A stretch of 64,000 bases of DNA from Acidobacteriota bacterium (GTDB lineage Bacteria; Acidobacteriota; UBA6911; JACQSX01), in the NCBI GenBank assembly GCA_036507075.1, contig DASXQR010000017.1, positions 93,188-157,187 of the forward strand, in the 5' to 3' direction. Shown here piece by piece: positions 1,328-60,083 of this stretch; positions within the stretch are counted from its first letter, which is position 1; every line of letters begins with the position of its first letter. The notes below the pieces were generated by a model that was given only the letters and a program-made list of their open reading frames with translations, had not been told where the DNA came from and did no database searches. A program made the translations under genes and the position numbers.

Positions 1328-1621
1328 GGTTGGCGAGTTCGCGGGCTGGCGAGTTACGGGTTGTCTGGTTGCGGGTCGTCGGGTTGTCGGATTACGGGTT
1401 GCGAGTTGACGGGTTACGGGTTGTCGGGTTGACTGGCCGGTACGTCACGATACCAATTTTCCAATTTTGAGTTTCAATCTGCCAAGTCGTAACCCGTAAC
1501 ACGCCGACTCGCAAGCCGACAACCCGTTAACCCGCAACCTGTCAACCGGTCAACCCGTGAACCCGCAACCCGGAACTCGCAACCCGCTCACCCGGAACCC
1601 GTGAACCCGCAACCCGGAACG
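1328..1621. repeat. palindromic element, GTTACGG family: arms are tandem arrays of GTTACGG/GTTGCGG-type 7-8-mers (about 110 nt each) around a ~60-nt apex containing CCAATTTTCCAATTTTGAGTTTCAA
   Basis: Read directly: 1328-1440 is a direct array; 1497-1621 is the reverse-complement array (CCGTAAC, CCGCAAC units); the apex motif recurs in the element at 59742-60083. Confidence 0.9.
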
Positions 1622-1627
1622 CCGCGT

Positions 1628-2717
1628 TTAGAAGACGTACCGCAAGCCGAGCCAGATTTCACGCCTTCCGCCGTCGGTGCCCCATTGGTTGAGAAAATTT
1701 GAGGAGTTAACGCGCCCCTCCGGAATGCCAAAGTTCCGCGTATTGGTGGCGTTGAACATATCCACCCGGAACTGCAGGCGATGGTTCTCCGTGATGCGGG
1801 TATTTTTCTGGAATCCCATATCCAGATTTCCAATGCCGTCTGCTCGCAGGGTGTTTCTTCCCACGTTCCCGGTTCGCACTCCTGAGCTCGGCAAGCGTGA
1901 AAACAGACTTGCGCCGCCGGCCTTCACCAGTTCCTCAATCGACATAGAAGCAATATTGAGATTTGTATTCAGGTTGGGGCGAATAGCGTTCCCAACCAGG
2001 CTATCAATACCACTCAGGGCGCCTGTCGGATCTGCGCCATTCAGGACGGTGAACGGCGCTCCGCTCTGAAACGTGAAAAAGGAATTCAACTGCCAGCCAC
2101 CAAGGATATGGCCCGTCACTCCCTGTTGTTCTCTAAAAAAGGGAAGTTCATACACAATATTCCCGGTGAGACGGTGCGGACGATCATACGAAGATCTTGC
2201 GCGATCCGCCCGCCTGTTGAATGAATCCTGCGAAACGGCAACTTCGCCTCCAGACGGGTTGAAGATTTCCGATGCGTCGTCGATATAAGCGCTCCAGGTA
2301 TAGTGCAACTCGGAAGGGTGCTTCTTTTCTCCCGGCACTTTTATCCAGATTACTTAAAGAATTCAATTTGTTGCCGTTGTAGAACTCGAAGGCGGAGCCG
2401 TGAAAGCGGTTGGACCCGCTTTTGGTAATAATGTTCATGACCGAGCCGGCGCTCCGGCCGTACTCTGCGGCAAACTGGTTTGTAATCAGCCGGACCTCTT
2501 GAACAATGTCGGTGTTGTTGATCGGCTGCTGTCGACCGGAAACACTCGGATCATTGCTATCCTGCCCGTCGATCATGAAGTTATTCGAGCGCAGCCTCAT
2601 TCCGTTGACCGAGAAATTCACTCCGCTGGCGAAATCGGATTGACCGCTGCCGAGCTGGCTTACGCCCGGTGCCGAGAGGGCCCTCGGGCCGTCTCTCCAC
2701 CCTGAAAATTGTCCCAC
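1628..2717 (-). pseudogene. TonB-dependent receptor remnant (plug domain plus C-terminal barrel end; frameshifted, 5'-truncated, internally deleted)
   Basis: Two overlapping minus-strand ORFs, 2184..2717 (plug-domain motifs NGMRLRSNNFMIDG, AEYGRSAGSVMNIITKSG) and 1628..2338 (barrel C-terminus ending LGLRYVF); combined ~360 aa against 700-1100 aa for intact receptors; the 5' end is replaced by a Y-type repeat terminus and a 16-bp tandem array. Confidence 0.65.
2675..2698. repeat. partial copy (terminal ~22 bp) of the Y element (GGAGACGGCCCTCGGGCCGTCTCTCC-type terminus)
   Basis: AGAGGGCCCTCGGGCCGTCTCTCC matches the termini of the ~90-bp elements at 13209-13296 and 24555-24644; it forms the 5' end of the TBDR pseudo-ORF. 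Confidence 0.7.
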
Positions 2718-2800
2718 CCTAAAATTGTCCCACCCTAAAATTGTCCTGCTCTAAAAATTGTCCCAGTCTAAAAATTGGTCGCACTCTAAAAAATGTCCAA
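2698..2800. repeat. direct tandem array, 16-18-bp unit CCCACCCTAAAATTGT, about 6 copies degenerating 3'-ward
   Basis: Read directly: ccaccctgaaaattgt / cccaccctaaaattgt x2 / cctgctctaaaaattgt / cccagtctaaaaattggt / cgcactctaaaaaatgt. Confidence 0.9.
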
Positions 2801-3505
2801 ACTCCAGCCCCTTTTGAGGCCCGAATCTACGGCACACCTTACTTTGTCCCGATAAAGATCTTTGTCATCTGTGCTGGAGGGAGGAACAAGGGGCGGGTGA
2901 AACATGACCTCTACCTGGCCTCTGTTGAGCTTCCAATTCCCTTTGGGTTGAATCTCGCGCGTCCCGACCAGCGTAATGGGAACGATGGGCACGCCGGACT
3001 TGATCGACAGGATAAATCCTCCCCCCTTGAAGGCACCCAAGGTGCCGTCTCGGCTCCGGGTGCCTTCGGGATAAAGAAGAAACGAATCGCCGCTTGTGGC
3101 CTGTTCGATAGCCCGGTCGATAGCGCCCCTTCCGGCTTCCGTATCGCCCCGGTCCACCGGCACACAGCGTGCCAGCCGCATTGCCGTCGAGAGGATCGGC
3201 AGCCTCAAGAGCTCCTTTTTGAAGATCACCTTGATGTCATGAGGAATGCAGGCAAAACATACCGGAGGATCCACGTTGCTGACGTGATTGGCCATAAAAA
3301 TGAAATTTCTGGAGGCCAGATTCTCGGTGTCACCGCGAATCCGGATCCGAATGCCGGCAATCCTGAAAGCCGCGCGGATAGTCCACCGGGCTACCACGTA
3401 CATCGGATGCGGATTGCTCGTGATGGCGGTATAAAGAAGCAAGACCGGTCCGGCAAGGATGAGAACCACGGAAATCAAGAGCATTATTGCCAGCGTGCGG
3501 ATCAT
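2786..3505 (-). CDS. plsC: 1-acyl-sn-glycerol-3-phosphate acyltransferase
   Basis: 239 aa; N-terminal TM helix; acyltransferase motifs NHVSNVDP (HX4D block) and PEGTRS. Confidence 0.85.
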   Translation of the reverse strand: MIRTLAIMLLISVVLILAGPVLLLYTAITSNPHPMYVVARWTIRAAFRIAGIRIRIRGDTENLASRNFIFMANHVSNVDPPVCFACIPHDIKVIFKKELLRLPILSTAMRLARCVPVDRGDTEAGRGAIDRAIEQATSGDSFLLYPEGTRSRDGTLGAFKGGGFILSIKSGVPIVPITLVGTREIQPKGNWKLNRGQVEVMFHPPLVPPSSTDDKDLYRDKVRCAVDSGLKRGWSLDIF

Positions 3506-3550
3506 CTCTATTTCAATTACGAATGGAAAGATTTCAAAATTCCGGTTCGA

Positions 3551-3952
3551 TCATTCGTCATTGGTCATTGGTCATCCGGTCATCAGTGGCTAATGATCTA
3601 GTCTAGTTGCCTGTAACAGCAGAATCGATAGTGGTACCGCGACTGCGAAGCGCCCGGCTTTGCCGCCCATCGTGCGGAAAGGCTCTGCCTTTCCGGCAGC
3701 CCCATTCTTCACCTTCTTCCTTTCTCCGCACACCGAGGCCCAGCCTCGGTTTGCGGAGATAGGATGGAGGGCATCGCCCGGAAAGGCAAAGCCTTTCCGC
3801 ACGATGGGCGGCAAAGCCGCAAGTTCTCTTCGATTTCTTCTCACGTTCCAAGGCCGGTGGAGGGCTGAGCTCGGATGCAGCACTATCGTTTCTTCTGTTA
3901 CAGTTCACTGACGATTAACGATCAACCAATGACCAATGACCAATGACCAAGC
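3551..3952. repeat. nested palindromic element: outer arms are tandem CATTGGT / GACCAATG heptamers (3551-3586 and 3908-3952); inner 45-bp inverted repeat at 3649-3698 and 3778-3827
   Basis: Read directly: tcattcgtcattggtcattggtcatccggtcatcag versus caaccaatgaccaatgaccaatgaccaagc; inner ttgccgcccatcgtgcggaaaggc...gcctttccgcacgatgggcggcaa; the overlapping ORFs 3590..3911 are judged spurious. Confidence 0.85.
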
Positions 3953-4009
3953 AACGCGAGCCGGGCTGCGAGTTGCCAGTGTTATAATGTTTTCCCTGAA
4001 AGGGAAGCA

Positions 4010-5221
4010 ATGCCAATGTTTGCAACGATTCCGGAAGCGATAGAAGAGATAAGTGAAGGCAGGATGGTGATCGTCGTCGATGACGAAGATCGTGAAAATG
4101 AAGGAGACCTGACCATGGCTGCGGAAAAGGTAACACCGGAGGCGATTAATTTCATGGCGCGCTACGGGCGCGGCCTGATCTGTCTTCCGATGACTCCGGA
4201 ACGGCTGGCCCAACTCGAGATCCCCCCGATGGTGGCGGAAAATACCGCACGTTTTCAAACGGCATTCACTGAATCGATCGACGCCCGCCGGAGTATCACC
4301 ACTGGTATTTCTGCGGCGGATCGCGCGCATACCATACTGACGGCGGTCGATCCCAAGTGTAAACCTTCAGATCTTGTGCGCCCCGGCCATATCTTTCCCC
4401 TGCGCTCCGAGCCGGGGGGAGTGCTGAAACGCGCCGGTCAAACGGAAGCGGCGGTTGATCTGGCTCGCATTGCCGGCCTGCAGCCTGCCGGTGTGATTTG
4501 CGAGATCATGAACGACGACGGCACCATGGCGCGCCTTCCCGAGCTGGAGCACTTTGCCCGGCGCTATAATCTGAAAATTGTATCTGTTGCGGACTTGATC
4601 CGTTTTCGACTGCAGACCGAAAAGTTCGTGCACGAGGTGGCGGAAGCCGATTTACCGACGGCGTTCGGAGATTTCCGAGTAAAGGTCTTTTTGAACGAGA
4701 TCGATCACAAGACACACCTGGCGCTCATCAAAGGCGACGTTTCCGGCAGTGACAGGGAGCCGGTGCTGGTCCGGATGCAGTCACAGTCGACCATGTCGGA
4801 TGTATTCCATTCCATGCGCAGTGACAGCGGCGAGCAGTTGCGCAAGGCCATGCAGATGATCGACAACTGCGGACGCGGGGTACTGGTTTACCTGCGTCAG
4901 GAAGGAAGGGGCATTGGATTGATAAACGAGATCAAAGCCTACGCCTTGCAGGACAGCGGCAAAGACACGGTCGAAGCGAATGCCGCGCTTGGTTTTCAGG
5001 CCGATCTCCGGGACTACGGCGTGGGAGCGCAGATTCTCAACAGCCTGGGCCTGCGCAAAATCCGACTGCTGACAAATCATCCCAAGAAGGTGGTCGGTCT
5101 GGAGGGCTATGGCATGACCATCGTGGAGCAGGTTCCCCTGGAAGTCACCCCTTCCGAGTATTCGGCCAATTACCTACGGACCAAAAAAGAAAAACTGGGC
5201 CATCATCTAAAGAAAGTGTAA
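4010..5221 (+). CDS. ribBA: bifunctional 3,4-dihydroxy-2-butanone-4-phosphate synthase / GTP cyclohydrolase II
   Basis: 403 aa; the N-terminal half carries the DHBP synthase motifs ([21 protein letters not shown]-like) and the C-terminal half the GTP cyclohydrolase II Cys and Arg motifs. Confidence 0.95.
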
Positions 5222-5223
5222 AC

Positions 5224-5590
5224 GGTCATCGGGTGCGAGTTACGGGTTTTCGAGTTACGGGTTTTCGGGCTACGAGTTTCGAGTTACGAGTTTCCGGGTT
5301 ACGAGTTTCCGGGTTACGGGTTTTCGGGTTACGGGTTTTCGGGCTACGAGTTTCCGGGTTACGGGTTTTCCAATTACGAGTTTTCACGTAGGGCGTGTTC
5401 GGTTATTACTGATGTTCTTGGATTCCAAATCCTGGCTAGAGCATCGAATCTGAGATCTTTGGATCGCTAATCGAACCAAAGCCGTAACCGGAAAACCCGT
5501 AACCGGAAAACCCGTAACCCGAAAACCGTAACCGGAAAACCCGTAACCCGAAAACCCGTAACCCGAAAACCCGTAACTCGCAGCACTCCG
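5224..5590. repeat. palindromic element, GTTACGG family with a 15-mer unit GTTACGGGTTTTCGG (left arm 5224-5390, right arm 5471-5590, ~80-nt apex)
   Basis: Read directly; the right arm is CCGTAACCCGAAAAC repeated; it occupies the ribBA-ltaE intergenic gap. Confidence 0.9.
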
Positions 5591-5629
5591 ACCGCTTCGT
5601 GATTTTCATGACTTCGCAGGGGTAAGCAC

Positions 5630-6670
5630 TTGAACTCAAGAATCATTGATCTCCGAAGTGACACGGTCACCAAGCCAACGGCTGAAATGCGGCGTGCCAT
5701 GGAATCGGCCGAAGTAGGCGATGATGTCTATGGCGAGGATCCGACGGTAAACCGGCTTCAGGAGCGCGCGGCCGAGGTTTTCAACAAGGAAGCCGCATTG
5801 TTTGTCCCCACCGGCACGATGGGCAATCAGATTGCGGTAAAACTGCACACTCGATCCGGGCAAGAGGTGATCGTCGAAGAGCAGGGGCACATCTTCAACT
5901 TCGAGATGGCCACCATGGCTGCATTCTCAGGCGTGCTGGCACGACCGGTGAAAAGCACAAACGGCATCCTGGAATGGCGCCAGATCGAAGCGGCAATCCA
6001 TCCCGACATTTACTACTACGCCCGCACCGGCTTGATCGCACTCGAGAATACCCACAATATGGCGGGAGGCACCGTCTACACGCGCGCGCAAAGCGACGAG
6101 ATCTGCCATCAGGCGAACGCGCGCAAAATCCCGATACACCTGGATGGTGCCAGAATCTTCAATGCATCGGCAGCCTTGAATACGTCTGTGCGGGATCTGT
6201 GCGGCCCTTTTGATACTGTGATGTTCTGTCTTTCAAAAGGACTGTGCGCCCCGGTAGGGAGCATGCTGCTTGGTCGCCGTGATGCGATGGAAGAAGGCAG
6301 AAGGCTGCGCAAAATGCTGGGCGGGGGAATGCGCCAGGCCGGAGTGCTGGCTGCCGCGGGCCTGATCGCTTTGGAAGAGATGCCAAAGCGGCTCCATATC
6401 GATCATCAAAACGCCGCCTATTTCGCCCAGGGCGTGGCAAGCCTGCCGGGAATCTCCATCGATCCGGCGGTGGTACGGACCAACATTGTGATTTTTGATC
6501 TGTCGGCCGACAAAGGCCCGGCCAACGACCTTCTTGCAAAGCTGAAAGAGGAGAAAGTTTTTCTGGGCGCCATCGGGCCGCAGCGCATCCGCGCCGTCAC
6601 TCATGCCGATGTGAGCCGGCAAGACATCGAGCATGTGCTGGGAGTGCTGAAGAGGCTTTTGTCGAATTAA
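5630..6670 (+). CDS. ltaE: low-specificity L-threonine aldolase
   Basis: 346 aa; [10 protein letters not shown]-terminus and PLP-lysine region typical of threonine aldolases. Confidence 0.9.
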
Positions 6671-6680
6671 AGCGGAAATT

Positions 6681-6749
6681 GAACCACCAAGACACCAAGG
6701 CAACAAGCTTGTACAACGGTCATCGTGCTGGCTTGGTGTCTTGGTGGTT
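6681..6749. repeat. palindromic element, CACCAAG family (aaccaccaagacaccaaggcaacaagc ... gctggcttggtgtcttggtggtt)
   Basis: Read directly; it lies between the convergent ltaE and hemW stops. Confidence 0.9.
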
Positions 6750-6757
6750 TATCTTTT

Positions 6758-7948
6758 TTACATGAACTCGCTCAGGATCTCGTTACTCACCAGGAAACCG
6801 GGGGGCGTCAAGAAATAGCGATCGTCGGCGCGCTTTACCCATCCCTGTTCCAGGAACCACGGCCAGCGTCTTCGCAGCCGATCCTGCTTGTCAACCAGGG
6901 CATCAAGCAACAACGCGTGCACTCCGCGGCACGTACGCATGCCCAGGAAGATCTGCTCCTGTAAACTCTCCACTGCCGAGACCTCTGCCTCGTTTTCGCG
7001 CGGCGAGGTCCCGGATTCAATCCTTTCAAGATAACCGCGCAGCGATCTTATGTTGTTCCACCTTCGCACTCCGTCAAACGAGTGACTGCTTACCCCGAAG
7101 CCGAGATAGGGCACCCGCCTCCAGTATTTCCAGTTGTGCCGGCTTTGGAACCCCGGGCGCGCGAAGTTGGAGATCTCGTACTGCTGCAGGCCGTGAGATT
7201 CGAGGGCGGCGACCAGGTCGAGATACTGACGGCCCACGAAATCGTCCGATGGCAGCGCTGCTTTCCCGGCACGGATACTGCCGTGCAGCGGTGTTCCCGA
7301 ATGCAGCTCCAGTATGTAAAGGGAAAGATGGTCTACAGGAAGGGAAACAGCCGCATCAACTGAAGGTCTGACTGACAATCTGGTCTGGCCGGGCAGCCCG
7401 AGTATCAGGTCAATGCTGATGTTCCGCACCCCGTCACGCCGCGCACGATCAACCGCAGCACGCGCGTCATCAGCGGTATGGGCGCGAGTCATTGCGGTAA
7501 GTTCGGCGTCATTGAAGGATTGAACCCCGATACTCAACCGGTTTATCCCGGCCGATCGGTAAAAGCCGATTCGCTGCGCTTCCCGCGGAGACGGATTCAT
7601 CTCCAGCGAGATTTCGGCTTCGGCCGCGACGGTGAACTTGCGCGCCAGTTCTTCAAGGATCTCGCCTATAAAGTGCTCGGAAACTATAGAGGGAGTGCCC
7701 CCTCCGATGTAGATACTATCAACCGACCGGAGCAGCGACGGAACCTCGACGCAGTGAATCTCACGAATCAAGGCGGAAAGGTAGCGCCTGACTACGGCCT
7801 CGTCAAAAACCGCGGTGGAAAAATCACAATAGTTGCATTTCGTGGCACAGAACGGAATGTGCACGTAAAGGCCGGAGAGTGGTGACGACCTGCCTTCTGT
7901 CGCGTCCGGAAGAGCTTGAGAAAAATGCATCATGAATTTAGGGGGCAC
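6758..7948 (-). CDS. hemW: radical SAM heme chaperone HemW / oxygen-independent coproporphyrinogen-III oxidase-like
   Basis: 396 aa; radical-SAM CxxxCxxC (HIPFCATKCNYCDF) plus a HemN C-terminal domain; GTG start. Confidence 0.85.
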   Translation of the reverse strand: MPPKFMMHFSQALPDATEGRSSPLSGLYVHIPFCATKCNYCDFSTAVFDEAVVRRYLSALIREIHCVEVPSLLRSVDSIYIGGGTPSIVSEHFIGEILEELARKFTVAAEAEISLEMNPSPREAQRIGFYRSAGINRLSIGVQSFNDAELTAMTRAHTADDARAAVDRARRDGVRNISIDLILGLPGQTRLSVRPSVDAAVSLPVDHLSLYILELHSGTPLHGSIRAGKAALPSDDFVGRQYLDLVAALESHGLQQYEISNFARPGFQSRHNWKYWRRVPYLGFGVSSHSFDGVRRWNNIRSLRGYLERIESGTSPRENEAEVSAVESLQEQIFLGMRTCRGVHALLLDALVDKQDRLRRRWPWFLEQGWVKRADDRYFLTPPGFLVSNEILSEFM

Positions 7949-8030
7949 GAATTACGCGAATTACACGAATTTCACGAATCTTTTAAAATAAATTCGTGAA
8001 ATTCGTGAAATTCGTGCTCAACTCGTGCTC
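7947..8030. repeat. palindromic element, CGAATTACG 9-mer family (acgaattacgcgaattacacgaatttcacgaatc ... aattcgtgaaattcgtgaaattcgtgctcaactcgtgctc)
   Basis: Read directly; it overlaps the hemW GTG start and the last codons of radC. Confidence 0.9.
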
Positions 8031-10058: not shown

Positions 10059-10250
10059 CAATGCGGAATGCGGAATAGGGAATAGATTTGGGAAATATGA
10101 AGCGGATTGGCAATTGCGCAATACGAAATTTGCCTAGGAATTGCTTCGATTATCGCGGTCTGACGATACATTCCATTTGACACTCCGCAATTCGTATTTC
10201 AAACTTTTATTCCGCATTCCGCATTCCGCATTCCGCATTCCGCATTCGAG
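10059..10250. repeat. palindromic element, CGGAATG family (left arm about 2.5 units, right arm 5 x CATTCCG, ~120-nt apex)
   Basis: Read directly: caatgcggaatgcggaatagggaatag ... ttccgcattccgcattccgcattccgcattccgcattcg; it lies between the convergent rlmI and ligD. Confidence 0.9.
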
Positions 10251-13072: not shown

Positions 13073-13142
13073 AGGCTCATTTTAGTTGAACGGGTCCAGC
13101 GTGGGGTTAAGAATCATGCGGGAGTGAAGTGATATTTTCGGG

Positions 13143-18000: not shown

Positions 18001-18190
18001 CAGGCATTTTAGAATATTGGGAGCCCCTGCTCAAGCTGAAGGCACACCACGCCGCCGCCAGGGCGACACGACATGTCCTTTTGGCACTTACGGATCGCAA
18101 CGCACTTGTTTCACCGGCCCAGTCTGGTTCTCTCGGCTCGACGGGCTCGTTGCCCAAATCGAGACTGGAGGCGCTCCGTCCACGAGTCTG

Positions 18191-18322
18191 CCACGAAGGC
18201 ACGAAGACAGGAAGGTTTCCGTATTTACCCTGAAGTGAAACGTTACGAAATCCACAATCATGTTTCTAAAAGTGGCACTCTAAGATCAATCTAGATCTTC
18301 GTGCCTTCGTGGCAACTCGTGG
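18191..18322. repeat. palindromic element, CACGAAG family (ccacgaaggcacgaagacaggaagg ... cttcgtgccttcgtggcaactcgtgg) with apical core AAGTGGCACTC
   Basis: Read directly; the apex core is shared with the elements at 36115, 54038 and 56885. Confidence 0.9.
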
Positions 18323-19007: not shown

Positions 19008-19126
19008 CAGAATGCGGAATGTGGATTGCGGAATGCGGAATACAATCAACTTAATTCTTCAAAGCAGACCAAATGCCTTGCTATTCCGCATTCCGCATTC
19101 CGAAATCCGTATTCGGATTCGGATTG
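19008..19126. repeat. palindromic element, CGGAATG family
   Basis: cagaatgcggaatgtggattgcggaatgcggaatac ... ctattccgcattccgcattccgaaatccgtattcggattcggattg; lies in a divergent intergenic gap. Confidence 0.9.
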
Positions 19127-26989: not shown

Positions 26990-27159
26990 GTTACGGGTTC
27001 CGGGTTTCGAGTTACGGGTTTTCGTAACCCAGAAACTTGCTTTTCTCAGTTGCTCTACCGAAGACTCCCGCCTGTAAACCCAATCTTTGCCCGCATAGAT
27101 TTCGGGTCTCTGCAAATTCGTCATATCTCGCAACCCGGAACCCGTAACTCGCAAACCGG
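26990..27159. repeat. palindromic element, GTTACGG family (short arms, ~100-nt apex)
   Basis: ttacgggttccgggtttcgagttacgggttttcgtaaccc ... cgcaacccggaacccgtaactcgcaaaccgg. Confidence 0.8.
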
Positions 27160-27261
27160 ATCCTGCATTGACGAACCTTCTCCTGGCTGCTAGCTGATTG
27201 ACAAACCTTCTCCTAGCTGGTAGAAAAACTTTTTTCTGCAAACACAGCGGGAGAGGACTGA

Positions 27262-30534: not shown

Positions 30535-31827
30535 ATGATTGCCGGCAAAAAGATCGCTGTTCTGGGCGTAATCTTTCTGGGACTTCTGGCCTTCGTTTAT
30601 TTCCACGAAATACGCGGGAAGGGCGAAGCCGACAAGCAGCAATCGGAGGCTAAGAAGGTCGTTCAGTTCAATGCCGACAAGGTTCGGAAAATTGCCCTGT
30701 CGCGAAGAAACGAGAGTCCCACTGTTGCCGTGAAAGAAGGCGCCAAGTGGAGAATCATCGAACCGGTTCAGGCGGTCGCCGACAGCACGGCGGTTGACGC
30801 TTTGCTGCAGTCGTTGGCTGATATGTCCTCGGACCGCACTCTGGAGAAAGTGGACTTAGGAAAATACGGTTTGAAGAGTCCCAGTGTCACGGTGACCCTG
30901 GAGGAACCAGGCAAGAAACTTGTGCTTTACTTCGGAGACAAAGATTTTTCCGGCAGCAATGTCTACCTGACGCTGGACAACGCAAAGGTGGAAATTGTTC
31001 CCGACGCCGCCTATACCAAGGCGATGGCTCCTGTTTCAGAGTTGCGGGATAAAACCATTCTGGATTTCAACGCGGATGCTATCGACCGAATCGAAATCCA
31101 CCGCCAAGGCGATGTTGTGGAGCTGAAGAAACAAAAGGATGGGTGGCGCCTGGCAAGGCCTGTGCCGGATCACGCGGACGATGCGACCGTGGATTCGCTG
31201 GTCAATTCGATCCGATATGGGCGGATCCAGGATTTTGCCGCGGATTCCCTGGACCAACTCAAAAAATACGGCTTGCAGCCGCCTGCCTTGCAGATCGTTG
31301 TTTTTGCGGGAGAGAAACGAAGCGAACTCAATGTTGGTGGGAAGAGTGGTGACAACAACTACGCGTACGCCGCCGGGCGGACTGTAGTGTTTACCGTCCC
31401 CAAGGACGTTCTGGAGAAGGCAACTCAGCCAGCGGAAAAATTGCTCTCGCGCGAAGTTTTGAAATTCGAACGCGACAAGGTAAACAAGATTGAAGCCACA
31501 ACGGAGAAGGGAAAGTGGTCAGTCGCCAGGAAGGGAAACCGCTGGAGCGTCACGGAGCCGGCGGGCAATGAAAAGAAGAATTTTCAGGATTCTCGCGTAT
31601 TGTTCGCTCTGGAAACATTACGCGGTGATCGAGCCAAGAATCCCGGTGCGCTCGTAAAACCGACGCTGGTTTATACGCTGACCCTATCCGACTCCACCAT
31701 CCGCGTAGAAATCTTCAAGAAGGGAAAGGACTGGCTGGCCAGGAGCAGCCAGTCAGACAAGGTGTTCCAGGTACCTGAAGACAAAGTGGAGACCCTGAAT
31801 AAGTCCATCGAGAGCTTCCTGGAATGA
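30535..31827 (+). CDS. DUF4340-like protein that accompanies GldG-type systems
   Basis: About 430 aa; N-terminal TM anchor; start ATG at 30535 directly after the gldG-like stop (the track ORF begins at 30511). Confidence 0.6.
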   Translation: MIAGKKIAVLGVIFLGLLAFVYFHEIRGKGEADKQQSEAKKVVQFNADKVRKIALSRRNESPTVAVKEGAKWRIIEPVQAVADSTAVDALLQSLADMSSDRTLEKVDLGKYGLKSPSVTVTLEEPGKKLVLYFGDKDFSGSNVYLTLDNAKVEIVPDAAYTKAMAPVSELRDKTILDFNADAIDRIEIHRQGDVVELKKQKDGWRLARPVPDHADDATVDSLVNSIRYGRIQDFAADSLDQLKKYGLQPPALQIVVFAGEKRSELNVGGKSGDNNYAYAAGRTVVFTVPKDVLEKATQPAEKLLSREVLKFERDKVNKIEATTEKGKWSVARKGNRWSVTEPAGNEKKNFQDSRVLFALETLRGDRAKNPGALVKPTLVYTLTLSDSTIRVEIFKKGKDWLARSSQSDKVFQVPEDKVETLNKSIESFLE

Positions 31828-31832
31828 TTTCG

Positions 31833-32074
31833 AATGCGGAATGTGAAATGCGGAATGATTTTAGATGGGGAATGCGGAATGCGAAATGCGGAATGATTTT
31901 AGATGCGGAATGCGGAATGCGGAATGCGGAATAAGGAAGTGAGCTTTTTCTATCTTCGGAGAGTCGAGCCAAACATTCGGCGTTCCCCATTCCGCATTCT
32001 CCATTCCCCATTCCGCATTCTCCATTCCGCATTTAAAATCATTCCGCATTCCGCATTCCGCATTCCGCATTCGG
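31833..32074. repeat. large palindromic element, CGGAATG family; each arm ~100 nt and internally duplicated (gaatgcggaatgNgaaatgcggaatgattttagatg x2)
   Basis: Read directly; the right arm is the reverse complement (cattccgcattctccattcc x2 ... cattccgcattccgcattccgcattccgcattcgg); it supplies the first ~57 codons of the track ORF 31903..33090. Confidence 0.9.
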
Positions 32075-33090: not shown

Positions 33091-33296
33091 CTCGATTATT
33101 CAGGAGAACTTAACCGCCAAGACCGCCAAGAGCAGCGCAAAGGACGGGGCTGAAGCTTGAAGTATGAAGGCCATCCAGGCAGCATCAAAAGTTGGCGTGA
33201 TGCCCTTCATACTTCAAGCTTCAGCCCCGTCCTTTGCGCCATTCTTAGCGATCTTGGCGGTCTTGGCGGTTAAGATTTTTTGAATAGTTCGAGCTA
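33086..33296. repeat. ~210-bp palindromic element, ACCGCCAAG family: TIR TAGCTCGATTATTCAGG..., arms (ACCGCCAAG)x2, inner perfect ~37-bp inverted repeat GCGCAAAGGACGGGGCTGAAGCTTGAAGTATGAAGG
   Basis: Read directly; homologous in architecture and sequence to 47024-47228; inside the ABC operon between the binding-protein gene (whose TAG stop lies in the TIR) and the ATPase gene. Confidence 0.9.
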
Positions 33297-36068: not shown

Positions 36069-36114
36069 ATCACCGCCCCACAAATCCTCAAATTCCACCT
36101 TGCCAGGCTCCTTG

Positions 36115-36244
36115 CCACGAAGTCACGAAGGCACGAAGTTCAACAGTTCTATTCGAAGTGACACTCGGGCAAAAACAATCAATATTTATGAGAAGTGCCA
36201 CTACAAACTAAATCTCGCCTTTCGTGTCTTCGTGTCTTCGTGGC
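36115..36244. repeat. palindromic element, CACGAAG family (ccacgaagtcacgaaggcacgaag ... cctttcgtgtcttcgtgtcttcgtgg), apex core GAAGTGACACTC
   Basis: The 24-nt left arm is identical to 56886-56909; the apex is homologous to the other CACGAAG elements. Confidence 0.9.
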
Positions 36245-36289: not shown

Positions 36290-36345
36290 CCTGGCTTGGT
36301 GCCTTGGTGGTTCCAAAACTTTTTTCACCACCAGGACACCAAGCT
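36290..36345. repeat. small palindromic element, CACCAAG family (ctggcttggtgccttggtgg ... caccaccaggacaccaagctcc)
   Basis: Read directly; a further CTTCGTG half-array at 36396-36420 encodes the C-terminus of the ORF 36398..37696. Confidence 0.85.
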
Positions 36346-39352: not shown

Positions 39353-39363
39353 TCCCCCAGGTC

Positions 39364-39430
39364 CACCGCGAAGGCGCGAAAGCGCGAACAACAGAGTCAG
39401 GCATTTTCGCGCCTTCGCGCCTTCGCGGTG
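39364..39430. repeat. palindromic element, CGCGAAG family (caccgcgaaggcgcgaaagcgcgaac ... ttttcgcgccttcgcgccttcgcggtg)
   Basis: Read directly; lies between the convergent GT4 gene and the 39435..40001 ORF. Confidence 0.9.
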
Positions 39431-39434: not shown

Positions 39435-40001
39435 TTAACGGAAATTCGAAACGGCCCTTACCACGTCCGATGCGATCCGATGCGGCAAATTTTGTGTTGG
39501 CTCGCCCGCTGGAAATTTGTAATCCTCGAGCCAGAAGGGAAGATTAGGCCGGTGCACGGAGGCCAGGTATACCTTCAGATGCAGATTGTCTTTGGCGTGC
39601 GATACGCGGCCGGTAACGACAAAGTCGATCCCCAGCTCGCGAGCTGCCTGGCCCAGGTCGGATTGTCTGCTCTTGAATGGCTTGGATTCCTGGAAAGGAA
39701 GCGTTTCCAGCCTTCGGTAACGCGAAATTTCGCTCGCAATACTGCCTGCCAGGCCGTCCAGCATTCGATCATTGTCTGCGTTTTCAGCCCCGAGGAAGGG
39801 AAGTACCGCAATTCGCCGAGGAGGCGGCTGCACTCCGCTCTTGCCCGTCAGCAGGAACAGCCAGAAGGGACTGGTGGCGACAATCGCCGTGACCAGGAGG
39901 GCAACGATGACCCAGATGCCTTGAGTACGCGTCGATTCTTTGTGCCCTTTGTGTCTTAGTGGTGAAAGACTCATTAACCACAAAGGCACAAAGAACACCA
40001 A
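39435..40001 (-). CDS. hypothetical protein with a TolB-N-terminal-like motif (IAVLPF...)
   Basis: 188 aa; the N-terminal ~25 aa are encoded by the CACAAAG palindrome at 39926-39990, so the true start is probably downstream. Confidence 0.4.
   Translation of the reverse strand: MVFFVPLWLMSLSPLRHKGHKESTRTQGIWVIVALLVTAIVATSPFWLFLLTGKSGVQPPPRRIAVLPFLGAENADNDRMLDGLAGSIASEISRYRRLETLPFQESKPFKSRQSDLGQAARELGIDFVVTGRVSHAKDNLHLKVYLASVHRPNLPFWLEDYKFPAGEPTQNLPHRIASDVVRAVSNFR
39926..39990. repeat. palindromic element, CACAAAG variant of the CACCAAG family (ttctttgtgccctttgtgtcttagtggtg ... taaccacaaaggcacaaagaacacc)
   Basis: Read directly; same architecture as the element at 42731-42780. Confidence 0.85.
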
Positions 40002-42730: not shown

Positions 42731-42780
42731 ACTTGGTGTCTTGGTGGTTCATTCTTTGTTCACCACCAAGGCACCAAGCC
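42731..42780. repeat. small palindromic element, CACCAAG family (cttggtgtcttggtgg ttcattctttg ttcaccaccaaggcaccaag)
   Basis: Read directly. Confidence 0.85.
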
Positions 42781-45646: not shown

Positions 45647-45660
45647 ATCCCAAAAGCTCT

Positions 45661-45719
45661 AACCGCGAAAGCGCGAAAGGCTAGCTTTTTTATTTCGCGC
45701 CTTCGCGCCTTTGCGGTGG
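45661..45719. repeat. palindromic element, CGCGAAAG family
   Basis: aaccgcgaaagcgcgaaagg ctagcttttttat ttcgcgccttcgcgcctttgcggtgg. Confidence 0.85.
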
Positions 45720-47023: not shown

Positions 47024-47228
47024 CCCTGGATTATTCAGGCAAAAACTTCACCGCCAAGAACGCCAAGACCGCCAAGAGTAGCGCACAGGACCGGGCTGGA
47101 ACTTGAAATAGAAACTACTCAGGTGTTGTAGGTTTGGCTTTCATATTTCAAGTTCCAGCCCGGTCCTGTGCGCTATTCTTAGCGGTCTTGGCGTTCTTGG
47201 CGGTGAAGTTTTCTTGATTAATCCCTGC
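47024..47228. repeat. ~205-bp palindromic element, ACCGCCAAG family, homologous to 33086-33296 (TIR CCCTGGATTATTCAGG..., arms (NCGCCAAGA)x3, inner ~35-bp perfect inverted repeat GCGCACAGGACCGGGCTGGAACTTGAAATA)
   Basis: Read directly; begins 2 nt after the icd stop. Confidence 0.9.
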
Positions 47229-48649: not shown

Positions 48650-48678
48650 ACCGCGAAGGCGCGAAAGCGCGAAAACCC
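48649..48678. repeat. solo half-element: single CGCGAAG-type arm with no inverted partner
   Basis: aaccgcgaaggcgcgaaagcgcgaaaaccc; same unit order as the left arm at 39364-39387. Confidence 0.7.
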
Positions 48679-52284: not shown

Positions 52285-52324
52285 GAGTTACGGGTTGAGA
52301 GTTTCAACCCGCAAACCCGGAACC
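52285..52324. repeat. mini palindromic element, GTTACGG family (agagttacgggttgagag tttc aacccgcaaacccggaacc)
   Basis: Read directly, in the divergent gap between pepP and folE. Confidence 0.7.
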
Positions 52325-52335
52325 TTTGAGGAGAT

Positions 52336-53969: not shown

Positions 53970-54230
53970 CAACCGTAAGAACCAAGCCAGGAGCCGAACC
54001 GCGCGCGTAAGCAAGCGGACCCTGCACTGGGAATTTGACCACGAAGCCACGAAGAGCCGCTATTCATTTTGTTGAACACTTCCCATAACTCGATCAGATT
54101 GTCGAAGAAGTGGCACTTCTAACTTGATCGTTGTTCTTCGGGTCTTCGTGCTTTCGTGGCAAATCCCCAGTGCAGGGTCCGCTTGCTTACGCGCGCGGTT
54201 CGGCTCCTGGCTTGGTTCTTACAACCAACC
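53969..54230. repeat. nested palindromic element: ~68-bp near-perfect outer inverted repeat (53969-54037 and 54160-54230) around CACGAAG-type inner arms and the apex core GAAGTGGCACTTC
   Basis: Read directly; followed by a short CAAC/ACGGACA tandem stretch running into the ATG at 54259. Confidence 0.9.
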
Positions 54231-54258
54231 ACGGACAACGGACAACTGACCACGAACA

Positions 54259-55242
54259 ATGAATTACAGAATACTGGGCAAAAGCGGCCTCCGAGTGAGT
54301 GAAATAGGCTTCGGGTGTTGGGCGATTGGCGGACCCTTCGAGTTGAGCGGGTTGCCGATCGGATGGGGTCCCGTGGATGACAACCAGTCGATAGCCGCAG
54401 TGCGCCGCGCTCTGGAACTGGGTGTGAACTTTTTCGATACCGCCGATGTGTACGGTTTTGGACACAGCGAGAAAATACTGGGCGAAGCGCTGCGCGGGTT
54501 CCGGAATTCGGTTGTGATTGCGTCCAAAGTGGGCAACACCCGCCAGGCGGACGGCATGCGCTTGAAGGATTTTTCCGCGCGCCACATTGTGAAGTCTTGC
54601 GACGATTCCCTTTGCAGGCTGGGAACGGATTACATTGATCTTTACCAGTTGCACAACCCCACCTTGGACCAGATTTTTTCAGGAGATGCGGGAGAGGCGC
54701 TGGAGAAACTTCAGTCGTCGGGAAAAATTCGCAGCTTCGGCGTCTCCATCAGCCATCCTTCAGAAGGCCTGGAAATCATTGGAAGGAACTTCGGCGCTAC
54801 CCTGCAGGTTCTTTATAACGTTTTGAACCAGAAACCGGCGGACGGTTTATTCAATGCCGCCAGGAAAAACGACTGCGGAATTATTGTGCGCGTGCCTCTG
54901 GCCTCCGCTTTACTCACCGGAAAGATCAGATCCGGCAGTTTTGATCCCCGGGACAATCGCAACAATTTCCTCACCGCCTCCAGGCTGCAGGAAGTGCTTC
55001 CAAAAGTAGATCGTTATCTTGAGCTGTGCAGGGATTACTCGCTCCGACCGGTTCAGGCCGCTCTGAAATTCATTCTGGCGCATCCGGCCGTCAGCACCGC
55101 TATACCGGGAGCGAAATCCACCGAGCAGGTTGACGAGAACGTTGCTGCATGCAAAGCGGAAATGCCTCCCGGGATGCTGGAGTCCCTGCGCCGGGAATTC
55201 AGGACCTACAATTTTTATCTGCGTCATGGGATCAAAATATGA
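54259..55242 (+). CDS. aldo/keto reductase
   Basis: 327 aa; AKR catalytic tetrad context (D..Y..K..H), GFGCW N-terminal motif. Confidence 0.9.
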   Translation: MNYRILGKSGLRVSEIGFGCWAIGGPFELSGLPIGWGPVDDNQSIAAVRRALELGVNFFDTADVYGFGHSEKILGEALRGFRNSVVIASKVGNTRQADGMRLKDFSARHIVKSCDDSLCRLGTDYIDLYQLHNPTLDQIFSGDAGEALEKLQSSGKIRSFGVSISHPSEGLEIIGRNFGATLQVLYNVLNQKPADGLFNAARKNDCGIIVRVPLASALLTGKIRSGSFDPRDNRNNFLTASRLQEVLPKVDRYLELCRDYSLRPVQAALKFILAHPAVSTAIPGAKSTEQVDENVAACKAEMPPGMLESLRREFRTYNFYLRHGIKI

Positions 55243-55269: not shown

Positions 55270-55412
55270 AATGCGGATTTCGGAATGCGGAATGCGGAAT
55301 CTCAGAAATGCGGAATGCGGAATGTGGAATAATGTGGAATAAGGAGTAATTTGGGTTTGGGCTTCGCAAATTTCTGTAATATTCCGCATTCCGAAATCCG
55401 CATTTTTACGTA
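55270..55412. repeat. palindromic element, CGGAATG family
   Basis: ttcggaatgcggaatgcggaatctcagaaatgcggaatgcggaatgtggaataatgtggaataagg ... attccgcattccgaaatccgcatttt. Confidence 0.9.
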
Positions 55413-56849: not shown

Positions 56850-57079
56850 GTTAAGTTACGGCTTGACGAGTTACGGGATCTTTACCACGAAGTCACGAAG
56901 GCACGAAGATTTAACAATTCAGTTAGAAGTGTCACTCCTGCTCGATCGTGGGTGATTTAAGAAATCACACTACAGGATAAATCCTGATTCTTCGTGACTT
57001 CGAGGCTTCGTGGCAAAGAGCCCGTAACTCGTCAACCCGCCAACCCGGAACTCGTTAACCCGTCAACCCCCGTCAACTG
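56850..57079. repeat. composite palindromic element: outer GTTACGG-type arms, inner CACGAAG arms (accacgaagtcacgaaggcacgaag ... cttcgtgacttcgaggcttcgtgg), apex core GAAGTGTCACTC
   Basis: Read directly; inner arm and apex are homologous to 36115-36244. Confidence 0.9.
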
Positions 57080-58464: not shown

Positions 58465-58932
58465 ATGAACTTGCTGCGGCGCATCTTGTTCATCGACATT
58501 ATCAAAGGTTTGTTGATCACGTTTCCTTACATGTTCCGCCGTACTTATACGGAACAATATCCGACGCAGCGGCCGCAGATTGCGGAACGGTACCGAGGTG
58601 CGCCGCGATTGAATCTTGATCCTGAGACCAAAGAGACGTTGTGCATCTCATGCAACCTCTGCGCCCTGGCCTGCCCGGAGGACCTGATCGTAGTTACCAG
58701 CGAACGGGATCCAAAGACCAGCCGAAAAATCCTGCAGGAGTTTACCTTTGACCTGTCACGCTGCCTGTTCTGCGGATTGTGCCAGGAAGCATGTCCGGTC
58801 AATGCCATCGAACTGACACAGTATTTCGAACTGGCTGCCTACGACAAGAACGGTTCGAAATGGGACAAGTACAAACTTGAGCACGGACCAACAGCGCTGC
58901 CCGGCTTGAGCCCGACGTCTGATGCGAAATGA
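58465..58932 (+). CDS. nuoI: NADH-quinone oxidoreductase subunit I (2x[4Fe-4S])
   Basis: 155 aa; two CxxCxxCxxxCP motifs. Confidence 0.9.
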   Translation: MNLLRRILFIDIIKGLLITFPYMFRRTYTEQYPTQRPQIAERYRGAPRLNLDPETKETLCISCNLCALACPEDLIVVTSERDPKTSRKILQEFTFDLSRCLFCGLCQEACPVNAIELTQYFELAAYDKNGSKWDKYKLEHGPTALPGLSPTSDAK

Positions 58933-59435
58933 AGAGTTACAAGATCATTCAGTATCCCGACCCGATACTGCGCAAAGTGGCGCCGCCCGTTAAAGTATTT
59001 GACCGAAAGCTTGCGTCAGCGGCGCAAAGGATGATCGCGACGATGTACCGGAACAAAGGAGTCGGTCTGGCCGGGCCGCAGGTCAATCTCCTGGAGCGCA
59101 TCCTGGTCATCGATACTTCGGAGAATCGAGACCAGCCTCGCGTGGTGATCAATCCTGAGATCCTTCATTCTGAAGGCAAGATCGCCATGGAGGAAGGGTG
59201 TCTCAGTATCCCCGACGTGAGAATCCGTGTCGTGAGGGCGGCGCAGGTCACCGTCAAGGCCCAGGACGAACTGGGGCGCTTTTTCCAAATCACGGCAAGC
59301 GACCTGGAGGCAGTCGTCTTCCAGCATGAGATCGATCACCTCAATGGTGTTCTGATCCTGGATTACGCCTCACCCGAGGCGGAGTTCGGGCCGCAAGCAG
59401 ACAGTGAAAAACCATCGCGTCTGGCCTCGCGATGA
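58929..59435 (+). CDS. def: peptide deformylase
   Basis: 168 aa; GVGLAGPQ, EGCLS and QHEIDHLNG motifs; ATGA overlap with nuoI. Confidence 0.9.
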   Translation: MKSYKIIQYPDPILRKVAPPVKVFDRKLASAAQRMIATMYRNKGVGLAGPQVNLLERILVIDTSENRDQPRVVINPEILHSEGKIAMEEGCLSIPDVRIRVVRAAQVTVKAQDELGRFFQITASDLEAVVFQHEIDHLNGVLILDYASPEAEFGPQADSEKPSRLASR

Positions 59436-59452
59436 ATCACGCGCGATGAATC

Positions 59453-59734
59453 ATGCATATAGAGTTTGTCGAAAGAAAACACCGGCTGAACTGGAAACTG
59501 CCAAGCGAAATTGCGTCTCTGCACCTTACTTATCCACGGGGCCGAATCGTCAAGTACTTCAGAGATAAGAACTACGGATTCATCAAAGCAAAAAACGGGC
59601 GGCATCTTTTCTTTTTCATTCCGGAAATCGATTTAATGGGGTCGGAAGATTCACTGCGCGTGGGTCTGGAAGTGGGGTACGACGTCACGCTGGTGGGCAA
59701 AAAGATGCGCGTCACGAAACTCAAGATCTATTAA
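59453..59734 (+). CDS. hypothetical small protein, possible cold-shock-domain-like fold
   Basis: 93 aa; KNYGFIK...GRHLFFFIPEI resembles a CSD RNP motif; weak. Confidence 0.35.
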   Translation: MHIEFVERKHRLNWKLPSEIASLHLTYPRGRIVKYFRDKNYGFIKAKNGRHLFFFIPEIDLMGSEDSLRVGLEVGYDVTLVGKKMRVTKLKIY

Positions 59735-59741
59735 GTTATCG

Positions 59742-60083
59742 ACTTGGCGGGTTACCGGGTTGCGGGTTAGCGGGTTGAGGGTTAGCGAGTTGCGGGTTAG
59801 CGGGTTACGGGTTAGCGGGTTTGCGAGTTACGGGTTTGCGAGTTACGGGTTAGCGAGTTACGGGTTATGGAGTTCAAATCCAGAATGAAAAATTACTGAA
59901 AGCGGCTCACCGCGAGGGCGAACTTTCAATTTTCCAATCTTGAGTTCGACAACTCGCAACCCGTAACGCGGTAACCCGCCAACCCGTAACTAGATAACCC
60001 GCAACCCGGTAACCCGCCAACCCGCAACCCGGTAACCCGCAACGCGCTAACCCGCAATGCGGTAACCCGTCAACGCGGAACTA
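59742..60083. repeat. large palindromic element, GTTACGG/GTTAGCGG family (arms ~130 nt, apex ~80 nt containing CAATTTTCCAATCTTGAGTTCGA)
   Basis: Read directly; the right arm is the array of CCGCTAACCC/CCGTAACCC units; apex motif shared with 1441-1500. Confidence 0.9.

Follow-up and report, generated by a model that had tools for sequence, protein, structure and literature searches.

Intergenic palindromes with tandem-heptamer arms in an Acidobacteriota genome as probable gene-less members of a small cassette class

A 64,000-nucleotide stretch of a soil-type Acidobacteriota metagenome-assembled genome (contig DASXQR010000017.1, positions 93,188 to 157,187; hereafter the window) contains 23 palindromic elements whose arms are tandem arrays of 7-9-nucleotide units. 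With a probability of roughly 60%, these elements are gene-less members, similar to MITEs (miniature inverted-repeat transposable elements), of a widespread but little-described class of small palindromic cassettes. The full-length form would consist of inverted tandem 7-9-mer arrays placed tightly around one small gene, encoding either a GxxExxY nuclease of the PD-(D/E)XK type (PF13366/TIGR04256) or a four-helix-bundle protein of family PF05635. The purine- or G-rich array would lie on the 5' side and provide a Shine-Dalgarno-like sequence just before the start codon. The window copies would be composed of the arms and a short apex only.

Gene-bearing cassettes with the same arms

The association with small genes was found in other genomes. 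One family recurred among the 203 open reading frames (ORFs) flanking CAC-type arrays, namely the GxxExxY protein (PF13366/TIGR04256, PD-(D/E)XK), which is 125-138 amino acids in length. No recurrent transposase was found among these ORFs. The GxxExxY gene lies exactly between the left and right arrays in four loci (L112, L116, L105, and L120) and partly so in L044. Further GxxExxY genes were retrieved through protein homology, in a sample made up of the closest relatives of array-selected queries, and were array-flanked in four of five independent loci (L192, L193, L196, and L180). The arrays stop at the start codon and restart right after the stop codon. The whole cassette is 480-550 nucleotides in length and is located in spacers between housekeeping genes, such as carA and carB (L192). 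The GxxExxY protein did not match solved structures when compared by sequence, and PF13366 has been listed as a multiply transferred family whose function is unknown (PMC3424549). In the protein database, GxxExxY genes are mostly on contigs of 0.5-3 kb.

The second gene encodes the PF05635 protein, the '23S rRNA intervening sequence protein'. ORFs of this family are enclosed by inverted arrays in L042 and, in two copies, in L116. An array-independent sample of 31 loci (approximately 24 distinct) was retrieved by peptide patterns alone. Complementary tandem-heptamer flanks are present at 28 of the 31 (22 of the approximately 24 distinct), versus 1 of 31 mismatched-locus controls. The flanks are heptamers or octamers of many units, including AGGGAGT, GTAGGCT, GGGCTTT, GGGTGTA, GACTGTT, GGCAGGAG, and others. 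The G-rich arm is upstream, often with AGGAG or GGAGG just ahead of the ATG. Across the gene-bearing cassettes, the 5' arm bears GAAGG or AGGAG right before the start codon. The gene association was seen for CACGAAG-type, CAGGAGA/GAGACGG-type, and many other units.

Gene-less palindromes and gene-bearing cassettes with common ends occur together in an 8-kb locus of the Planctomycetota metagenome-assembled genome JA3.bin18 (L116). Positions 100-7630 of this locus contain three cassettes, two with PF05635 and one with GxxExxY, along with at least two array palindromes that lack a gene. The sequence at 496-534 is the same as that at 1856-1894 (39 nucleotides, 100%), and the sequence at 5100-5149 matches that at 3652-3701 (50 nucleotides, 98%). 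The shared stretches include the leader and the flank outside the array. Candidate autonomous partners with the same ends were found in other genomes only (L116, L112, L192, L193, and others), and none in the window or in the loci of its relatives. A transposase between distant arms was considered and rejected. Locus L005 contains nif genes at this place, and the apexes of L004, L009, and L041 are non-coding.

The CAC-type arrays are widely distributed. An exact scan for (CACGAAGN)3 with one genome per species gave at least 119 loci among the matches listed. These belong to Acidobacteriota, Planctomycetota, Verrucomicrobiota, Gemmatimonadota, Nitrospirota, Chloroflexota, Bacteroidota, Myxococcota, Actinomycetota, and Alpha-, Beta-, and Gammaproteobacteria, with isolates among them. 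A preliminary description of the window, made by reading its letters, had allowed for the elements being confined to this region; the same architecture is present in many phyla. An inverted partner lies within 260 nucleotides at approximately half of the loci listed, and the paired loci usually have three units in each arm, with an apex of 8-222 nucleotides that is not conserved. Within viral contigs, the CACGAAG-type unit was found at 32 loci, versus 9, 6, and 3 for three composition-matched permuted units (approximately 5-fold), and +/- pairs were found for the real unit only. Loci with CAC-type arrays also hold inverted array pairs of unrelated units. The end consensus of the CAC type is TTnAC followed by CACGAAG, with T upstream and A downstream in the flanks, and the same ends are present in the window elements E4, E11, E14, E17, and E18 (listed below). 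Two IMG/VR contigs are also worth recording. One (L132) has six inverted array pairs of differing units in 10 kb, and in the other (L131, 3704-4512) inverted CACGGAACA arrays lie on both sides of a phage Mu Gp27-like gene.

Because a palindrome reads the same on both strands, the order of its arms is an intrinsic property. The purine-rich arm, usually with G>C, is 5' in 40 of 45 CAC-type pairs, in 22 of 24 pairs with other units from other genomes, in 21 of 22 further pairs, and in 17-18 of 24 within the window, where three CACCAAG-type elements (36290, 39926, and 42731) show the opposite order. This polarity is the 'convergent' orientation reported for Xanthomonas. A simple reading is that the rule would exist because the 5' arm supplies the ribosome-binding site of the cassette gene, whichever way the gene points. 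Rho avoidance was rejected as a cause of the polarity, since the exceptions are not confined to convergent gaps.

Palindromes of the window

Intergenic gaps of at least 30 nucleotides (n = 33) were counted on a curated gene map combining ORFs, Pfam matches, and JGI gene calls on an identical contig. The elements occupy 22 of these gaps (67%), fewer than the 'nearly every gap' of the preliminary description, and span 3,791 of the 8,058 intergenic bases (47%) at a frequency of approximately one per 2.7 kb. The architecture itself was borne out, and all unit families and coordinates were recovered. Tandem Repeats Finder (TRF) placed short-period arrays (7-9 nucleotides, or 15-nucleotide double units) at every coordinate where that description had reported one. 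By direct reading, GTTACGG-type units are at 1328, 5224, 26990, 52285, and 59742, and in outer arms at 56850; CGGAATG units at 10059, 19008, 31833, and 55270; CACGAAG units at 18191, 36115, 54038, and 56885; CACCAAG/CACAAAG units at 6681, 36290, 39926, and 42731; CGCGAAG units at 39364 and 45661, with a solo arm at 48652; unit ACCGCCAAG at 33086 and 47024; CATTGGT at 3551/3925; and unit CACGAATTA at 7946.

A conservative detector of TRF pairs gave 14 inverted array pairs in the window versus 0-1 per shuffle (n = 20 shuffles), and 81 short-period arrays versus approximately 23 in shuffles. An inverted-repeat finder joined the arrays into palindromes with arms of 16-134 nucleotides that are 71-98% complementary. 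The apex is 2 to approximately 340 nucleotides long, a wider range than the 15-120 nucleotides first given. In-silico folding, which had been proposed as a check, placed all 23 elements below dinucleotide shuffles, with z values of -2.4 to -23.6. Identical elements were recovered in independent JGI and Logan assemblies, so they are not an assembly artefact.

The elements are listed here by position in the window, with arms given as left array / right array.

E1, 1328..1625: GTTACGG/GGGTTGN-type arms of approximately 9-18 units, 55-nucleotide apex, z -6.0; between convergent genes, 8 and 2 nucleotides off the two stop codons; the arm contains a G-quadruplex motif and an apex motif is common to E24.
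E2, 3547..3950: CATTGGT x3.6 / ACCAATG x3.7, apex of approximately 340 nucleotides, z -18; divergent gap; the apex contains a second, non-tandem palindrome and an ORF without a Pfam match.
E3, 5222..5582: 15-nucleotide double unit GGGTTACGGGTTTTC x10 / x7, 92-nucleotide apex, z -11; ribBA-lyase gap.
E4, 6683..6752: AAC then CACCAAG x3 / CTTGGTG x2 then GTT; convergent gap.
E5, 7946..8016: CACGAATTA x3.8 / AAATTCGTG x3, 10-nucleotide apex; flanked by two minus-strand genes.
E6, 10059..10247: GGAATGC x2.4 / GCATTCC x5.6, 125-nucleotide apex; convergent gap.
E7, 18176..18322: CACGAAG family, 3-4 units per arm, 90-nucleotide apex with GAAGTGNCACT motifs.
E8, 19010..19125: GGAATGC x4.6 / GCATTCC x4.6; divergent gap.
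E9, 26990..27160: GTTACGG x4.4 / AACCCGG x4.1, 111-nucleotide apex; behind a PAS-GGDEF gene.
E10, 31821..32072: GGAATGC x13.6 / GCATTCC x13.7, z -13.5; overlaps the stop codon of the upstream gene; the GGAATGC arm, and only that arm, has a 38-nucleotide higher-order repeat.
E11, 33111..33272: ACCGCCAAG x2 arms and a long unique stem, z -23.6; homologous to E18; between the binding-protein and ATPase genes of an ATP-binding cassette (ABC) operon.
E12, 36114..36244: CACGAAG x3 / CTTCGTG x3, 89-nucleotide apex with two GAAGTGNCACT motifs.
E13, 36293..36340: small, reversed order, CTTGGTG x2 / CACCAGG/CACCAAG.
E14, 39362..39429: CGCGAAG x3 / CTTCGCG x3, 17-nucleotide apex, z -10.8; convergent gap.
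E15, 39933..40000: reversed order, CTTTGTG x3 / CACAAAG x3; 1 nucleotide past a stop codon.
E16, 42731..42779: reversed order, CTTGGTG x2 / CACCAAG x2.
E17, 45660..45717: CGCGAAAG x2 / CTTCGCG x3; divergent gap between lptD and icd.
E18, 47048..47206: arms of TTCAC then CGCCAAG x3 and a long unique stem, arms 97% complementary, z -21; homologue of E11.
Solo arm, 48652..48674, plus strand: CGCGAAAG x2.9, without an inverted partner.
E20, 52285..52325: short GTTACGG-type hairpin, 10 nucleotides upstream of the folE start; divergent gap.
E21, 53975..54222: composite, an outer 63-nucleotide unique palindrome (98% complementary) around a CACGAAG element, z -21.
E22, 55270..55404: GGAATGC x8.4 / GCATTCC x3.4, unequal arms, z -11; convergent gap.
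E23, 56854..57077: nested, GTTACGG-type outer arms and a CACGAAG x3 inner element, z -10; divergent gap.
E24, 59744..60081: GGGTTAGC/GGGTTAC-type arms of approximately 130 nucleotides each (134 by the inverted-repeat finder), 70-nucleotide apex, z -12.8; between a cold-shock-domain gene and nuoA.

The elements are dispersed repeat families and not only local growths. The four CACGAAG elements share their arms and two inner GAAGTGNCACT(TC) palindromes, with conserved inner 13-nucleotide palindromes GAAGTGNCACTTC. Their apex is 89-90 nucleotides long in E7, E12, and E21, and the inner apex of E23 is approximately 81 nucleotides long. E11 and E18 are homologous at separate sites of the window. 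A composite like E21, consisting of the unique outer arm and a CACGAAG element and 78% identical, is present at a non-orthologous locus on a metagenome contig (L177) that has no gene homology to the window. A metagenome scan for the arm together with the inner motif gave three loci only and no gene-bearing copy of the CACGAAG family of the window. In the nested elements E2, E21, and E23, the inner element lies exactly at the center of the outer palindrome. The flanks of the elements are complementary to each other, and in the composites this complementarity runs right up to the inner element. As in MITEs, the elements have terminal inverted repeats, are non-coding and shorter than approximately 500 bp, and include several dispersed homologous copies.

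The gaps without a tandem-array element mostly contain other repeats. A REP-like (repetitive extragenic palindromic) repeat of approximately 90 nucleotides, composed of GGAGAGACGGCCCGAGGGCCGTCTC-type palindromes, is located at 13140-13300 and 24554-24645, with copies 85-88% identical, and occurs twice in L177 (11-207). Palindromes of the form (GT)AGAGACGCG-nnnn-CGCGTCTCT(AC) sit in gaps lacking a tandem-array element, at 13150-13190 and 22318-22372 and in a relative (L123, 8205-8290). A 17-nucleotide tandem repeat, CCACYCTAAAAATTGTC x6, is located at 2697-2798 between two minus-strand genes and has no inverted partner. Direct-only purine-rich arrays, some of them Shine-Dalgarno-like, are found upstream of genes at 20366-20619 and 54231-54259. 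The arrays before serA are GCAGGAG x5, GAAGGCG x4.7, and ACTGAACG x4.6, and an ACGGACA x4 array stops at the start codon of an aldo-keto reductase gene.

Beside E1, two minus-strand ORFs (1628-2717) match only the ends of an 838-position outer-membrane beta-barrel/TonB-receptor profile, one covering the Plug and barrel start and the other the barrel end, and represent a truncated pseudogene; the relative L122 has no gene there. At E10, the first GGAATGA unit contains the stop codon TGA of the upstream gene (31825-31827). For the downstream binding-protein gene, the longest ORF (from 31903) crosses the whole array, so the true start of this gene is uncertain. Positions 52932-53969 contain one 345-amino-acid ORF with a FUR-family domain and rubrerythrin repeats, either an unusual fusion or two merged genes.

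Variation, placement, and alternative explanations

Two JGI contigs from different samples (L125 and L126) match the window at 99.5-99.7% identity along 6.5 and 11.3 kb; both begin just after E2. The right arm of E3 is longer by 15 nucleotides (one double unit) in both contigs, and the right arm of E6 is longer by 21 nucleotides (three heptamers) in L125. These are the only indels in the two alignments, while 1 of 15 substitutions falls within an element. The changes support slippage-type gain and loss of units, one arm at a time, in agreement with the slippage-driven expansion suggested at the outset, and this explains the unequal arms. Complementarity of the arms is maintained over longer times. 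Of 51 predicted pairs compared between E11 and E18, 8 are changed on both sides, none is changed on one side, and none is broken.

Occupancy and unit sequence are dynamic between related genomes, and sequence is not conserved. The relatives examined have the same gene order, with RibBA 84-85% identical. An inverted array pair is present in the ribBA-lyase gap of all three genomes, with unit GGGTTACGGGTTTTC in the window versus TCGAATGT/TCGAATTT and GTCGCAGG/GTCGAAAG in the relatives (L122, L123). The acyltransferase/ribBA gap has CATTGGT arms in the window and a CACGNN hexamer palindrome in one relative. At other orthologous gaps, an element in one genome has as its counterpart in another a simple terminator hairpin, a palindrome of the REP-like kind, or a solo array, and the E1 site is occupied by a canonical terminator in a relative. 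A relative at 78% has few arrays. The CACGNN hexamer type also occurs as an array (CACGAGCACGTGCACGTCAACGACCACGACTACG) at 50655-50700 of the window, downstream of tRNA-Glu, and as a full palindrome in L122 at 9685-9810.

Such variation could be the product of local mutation, in which slippage builds an array beside a hairpin and intrastrand template switching (quasipalindrome correction) mirrors it, with no mobility and no function. The unit-number indels as the sole indels between strains, the unequal arms, the differing units at orthologous gaps, and the 38-nucleotide duplication in just one arm of E10 agree with this explanation. The eight double and zero single changes between E11 and E18 also fit copying from arm to arm. 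A local product is nonetheless unlikely, given that homologous copies occur at non-orthologous sites, that end sequences are conserved across phyla and common to gene-bearing cassettes, and that the CACGAAG unit is 5-fold over-represented compared with permuted controls. The strong polarity is not predicted by slippage and template switching.

Placement bears on a second alternative. The elements occupy 6 of 7 convergent, 5 of 7 divergent, and 11 of 19 co-directional gaps, and 17 of the 26 gaps with a 3' end. Many start 1-15 nucleotides past a stop codon and fill convergent gaps exactly. The element reported inside an ABC operon was confirmed as E11, with E10 just upstream of the binding-protein gene. 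The elements could accordingly be dedicated bidirectional terminators or 3' mRNA-stabilizing hairpins, selected in place and replacing canonical intrinsic terminators, of the kind known for REP in malEFG. In addition to the placement next to stop codons and behind the binding-protein gene, this explanation would account for the lack of enrichment of canonical hairpin-plus-T-run sites (72 versus approximately 71 expected, almost none at gene ends), the canonical terminator at the E1 site of a relative, and pairing kept by compensatory change. However, divergent gaps are filled as often as 3' ends (5/7 versus 17/26), and no T-run follows the right arm within 15 nucleotides downstream, with the exception of E4, E11, and weakly E18. 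The flank consensus of T upstream and A downstream is the reverse of that of a bidirectional terminator, folding shows no sense-versus-antisense bias, and occupancy is not conserved at most orthologous gaps. The terminator role, one of three functions first offered, is thus not favored and is slightly less likely than local mutation. Since the window shows no enrichment of canonical terminators either, the elements may still act in effect as 3' hairpins.

The second function first offered was binding by a repeat-reading protein. The nearest precedent is in Geobacter metallireducens, where tandem octa- or heptanucleotides paired across opposite strands (24, 21, and 8 pairs) were called 'global regulator sites' and guessed to be IHF/HU sites (Aklujkar et al. 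2009, PMC2700814). The unit classes 1-3 are GTTGCTYN, TCTCCGTS, and MTYCTGA (PMC2700814). As in the window, these sites have 3-5 tandem 7-9-mers, the same array on the opposite strand at variable distance, and several unit classes; they number tens of pairs and are all intergenic, including inside operons (proBA). Unlike the window elements, they occur at far lower density, and no link to small ORFs or RNA structure was drawn there. Two insertion sequences close to the Geobacter sites, ISGme8 and ISGme9, could not be assigned to a family and were set aside. Arrays of binding sites for such a chromosomal or regulatory protein would be in keeping with short, regularly spaced units, often exactly three per arm, and with the inner palindromes GAAGTGNCACTTC of the CACGAAG family, which resemble dimer operators. 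This explanation is improbable. At least eight unrelated unit families in 64 kb and unit turnover between relatives at orthologous gaps are hard to reconcile with one reader, copy number varies freely, spacing of 7-9 bp is out of helical phase, and the IHF/HU interpretation in Geobacter (PMC2700814) is itself a guess.

Mobilization as REP or REPIN elements by a REP-associated tyrosine transposase (RAYT, an IS200-like Y1 transposase) encoded elsewhere in the genome is very improbable. The window elements are, like REP/BIME/REPIN, ERIC, Correia/NEMIS, and RUP sequences, abundant, intergenic, hairpin-forming, nested or clustered, and tolerated in operons, and other REP-like palindromes lie in the same gaps. 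Likely effects on mRNA ends are a further likeness to REP/BIME and MITEs. Unlike those families, however, the arms are tandem arrays of variable number with at least eight unit types, and no conserved 5' tetranucleotide, REP core of 20-40 nucleotides, or target-site duplication was found. As its product, the candidate autonomous partner has a 130-amino-acid nuclease or a four-helix bundle and not a transposase; GxxExxY is the sole recurrent family among the 203 ORFs flanking CAC-type arrays. The Pfam scan of window ORFs, with the genes of 57.6-63.8 kb covered by precomputed JGI calls, found no transposase, RAYT, or Y1 domain, as the preliminary description had stated.

G-quadruplex formation, proposed for Xanthomonas GGGAATC and Nostoc GGGGATT heptamers, is the most doubtful explanation and is refuted as a general one: GTTACGG-type arms with GGG tracts hold six of the seven canonical motifs of the window (in E1, E3, and E24, always in the G-rich arm) and the convergent orientation is that of Xanthomonas (PMC4692102), but 20 of 23 elements have no motif of at least four G3 tracts with loops of 1-7 nucleotides, and CACGAAG, GGAATGC, CACCAAG, CGCGAAG, and CGCCAAG units have no G-runs.

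A promoter role was also rejected, as 8 of 20 promoter-like hits are in elements, no more than expected for the AT-richer intergenic DNA. The outer end of the CAC-type arm (TTGCCACGAAG / TTGACCACGAAG) is a -35-like hexamer, with an A/T-rich -10-like box approximately 17 nucleotides inward. Examples are at 18315-18288, 57016-56987, 36158-36186, and other positions in the window.

The remaining function first offered, that of non-autonomous mobile elements, is the best supported of the three, as the arms enclose GxxExxY or PF05635 genes elsewhere and the ends are shared. Several results weigh against interpreting the window elements as gene-less cassettes. Searches by tblastn with three GxxExxY queries (E<=0.001), and then with two PF05635 queries in addition (E<=0.01), found nothing in the window, and apex ORFs of the window gave no Pfam match. 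No GxxExxY or PF05635 gene or recognizable remnant is present in the window or in three related loci. An associated nuclease gene, for which a search had been proposed, was seen in other genomes only, and the link to the cassettes is therefore one of shared architecture and ends. The exact GGAATGC and GTTACGG units of the window were not seen around such a gene at the loci examined, and GGAATGC arrays in viral contigs are mostly solo, with no small-gene partner nearby. The GxxExxY sample is biased to one subfamily, as its homologs are the closest relatives of array-selected queries. Comparison of orthologous gaps, also proposed earlier, revealed differing occupancy and units, but no direct repeats of the target-site-duplication type flank the elements. 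RNase III action in mRNA is an inference, and folding energies show no consistent sense-strand preference. Finally, the gene-less palindromes could be targets of gene insertion instead of deletion derivatives.

Known repeats, proposed mechanism, and meaning

The closest known structure is the 23S rRNA intervening sequence (IVS) of Leptospira, Coxiella, Salmonella, and others. The Coxiella IVS has a 28-bp terminal stem in which RNase III cleaves at the first of 3-4 tandem heptamers (GACAGAT x3-4), which lie upstream of a small PF05635-type ORF and are strain-variable in number (PMC4990558). The 23S IVS is regarded as selfish and is excised by RNase III (PMC4990558). The window elements share with it the terminal inverted repeats that form a long stem, and their tandem heptamer-type arms vary in number between strains. 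The PF05635 cassettes outside rRNA share the ORF and the arrays that flank it. Unlike the 23S IVS, the window elements are intergenic and not in rRNA, have no ORF, occur approximately once per 2.7 kb, and have arms of up to 130 nucleotides. Excision by RNase III is a feature of the 23S IVS, while the window elements are known from sequence alone. An Rfam search of the window at the gathering threshold gave tRNA-Glu as the sole match and no rRNA, so the helix 25/45 setting of 23S rRNA is absent. At E<=1, the search gave only generic long-hairpin microRNA-precursor models, far under threshold.

Paired arrays have also been reported in Xanthomonas, in which 70-75 convergent GGGAATC heptamer array pairs were read as G-quadruplexes (Rehm et al. 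2015, PMC4692102). These resemble the window elements in having the G-rich arm first and in being intergenic and near stop codons. Their copy number differs between species while the type is kept. They differ in having a single unit family, and the G-quadruplex account cannot cover 20 of the 23 window elements. The window elements have the arrangement described in both Geobacter and Xanthomonas, with the same array on both strands, facing, at variable distance, and in intergenic DNA. The preliminary description did not recognize the architecture. It is correct that there is no match to REP/BIME, ERIC, Correia, and the like, or to Rfam; the architecture has, however, been reported without a name in these two genera (PMC2700814, PMC4692102) and resembles the 23S IVS (PMC4990558).

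Direct arrays of this kind form a further group. Their intergenic tandem units of 5-11 nucleotides are found in the window too, although this covers the arms only and not the paired architecture. The cyanobacterial short tandemly repeated repetitive (STRR) sequences of Mazel, dated 1990, and the 5-11-nucleotide long simple sequence repeats of Mrazek, dated 2007, include tandem heptamers found mainly in intergenic DNA. At 3551, the array (TCATTGG)n is identical to that of STRR2, (TTGGTCA)n. These repeats are described as direct arrays, a description that does not cover inverted pairing, complementarity, or cargo genes. Foldback (FB) transposons of Drosophila have long terminal inverted repeats made of short tandem repeats, with variable copy number, and are often non-coding. 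They are eukaryotic and kilobase-scale, and the likeness is not taken as common descent. Heptamer arrays are known as STRR or long simple sequence repeats, as cited in two later papers (PMC4679880, PMC4692102). A literature search with exact repeat strings gave nothing relevant, and no paper linking heptamer-array pairs, IVS, and GxxExxY genes was found in the literature searched.

The elements probably act on RNA as long stems of the RNase III type. A transcript across an element would fold into a stem of 20-130 bp, and RNase III would cut this stem, an action demonstrated in experiments on the 23S rRNA IVS. Such cutting would make insertions in intergenic and intra-operon RNA tolerated and may yield processed or stabilized 3' ends as a by-product. 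RNA-level selection through G-U asymmetry was considered and rejected, as there is no consistent sense-strand advantage. The nuclease of the cassettes is the obvious candidate for driving their spread.

A broader and tentative proposal is that miniature mobile cassettes marked by inverted tandem-heptamer arms form one pan-bacterial class, not yet described as such, with a single GxxExxY nuclease gene or IVS four-helix-bundle gene as cargo. The 23S IVS would be only the best-known insertions of this class, and the gene-less palindromes here and in Geobacter and Xanthomonas would be its non-autonomous majority. The nuclease might drive the spread, for instance through cleavage of extruded palindromes or empty arms followed by homing into them, and the purine-5' polarity might be a design rule that gives a ribosome-binding site whichever the orientation.

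Among the long simple repeats of bacterial genomes, heptamers show the strongest over-representation and have so far been explained piecemeal, as G-quadruplexes, IHF sites, or translational signals. The 23S rRNA intervening sequences have stood as an oddity for 35 years, and in environmental bacteria the genes for GxxExxY and 'IVS protein' belong to the most common small genes whose function is unknown. The evidence ties all three into one kind of element with a checkable anatomy and a polarity rule. The elements can pass for small-RNA genes or terminators, and they break short-read assemblies, with several contigs ending at them. If the interpretation is correct, it would give a function-neutral account of a large share of intergenic DNA in some lineages, nearly half here. 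Inverted arrays would then serve as a search key for cassettes, and the PF13366 and PF05635 proteins would have a concrete hypothesis for their role.

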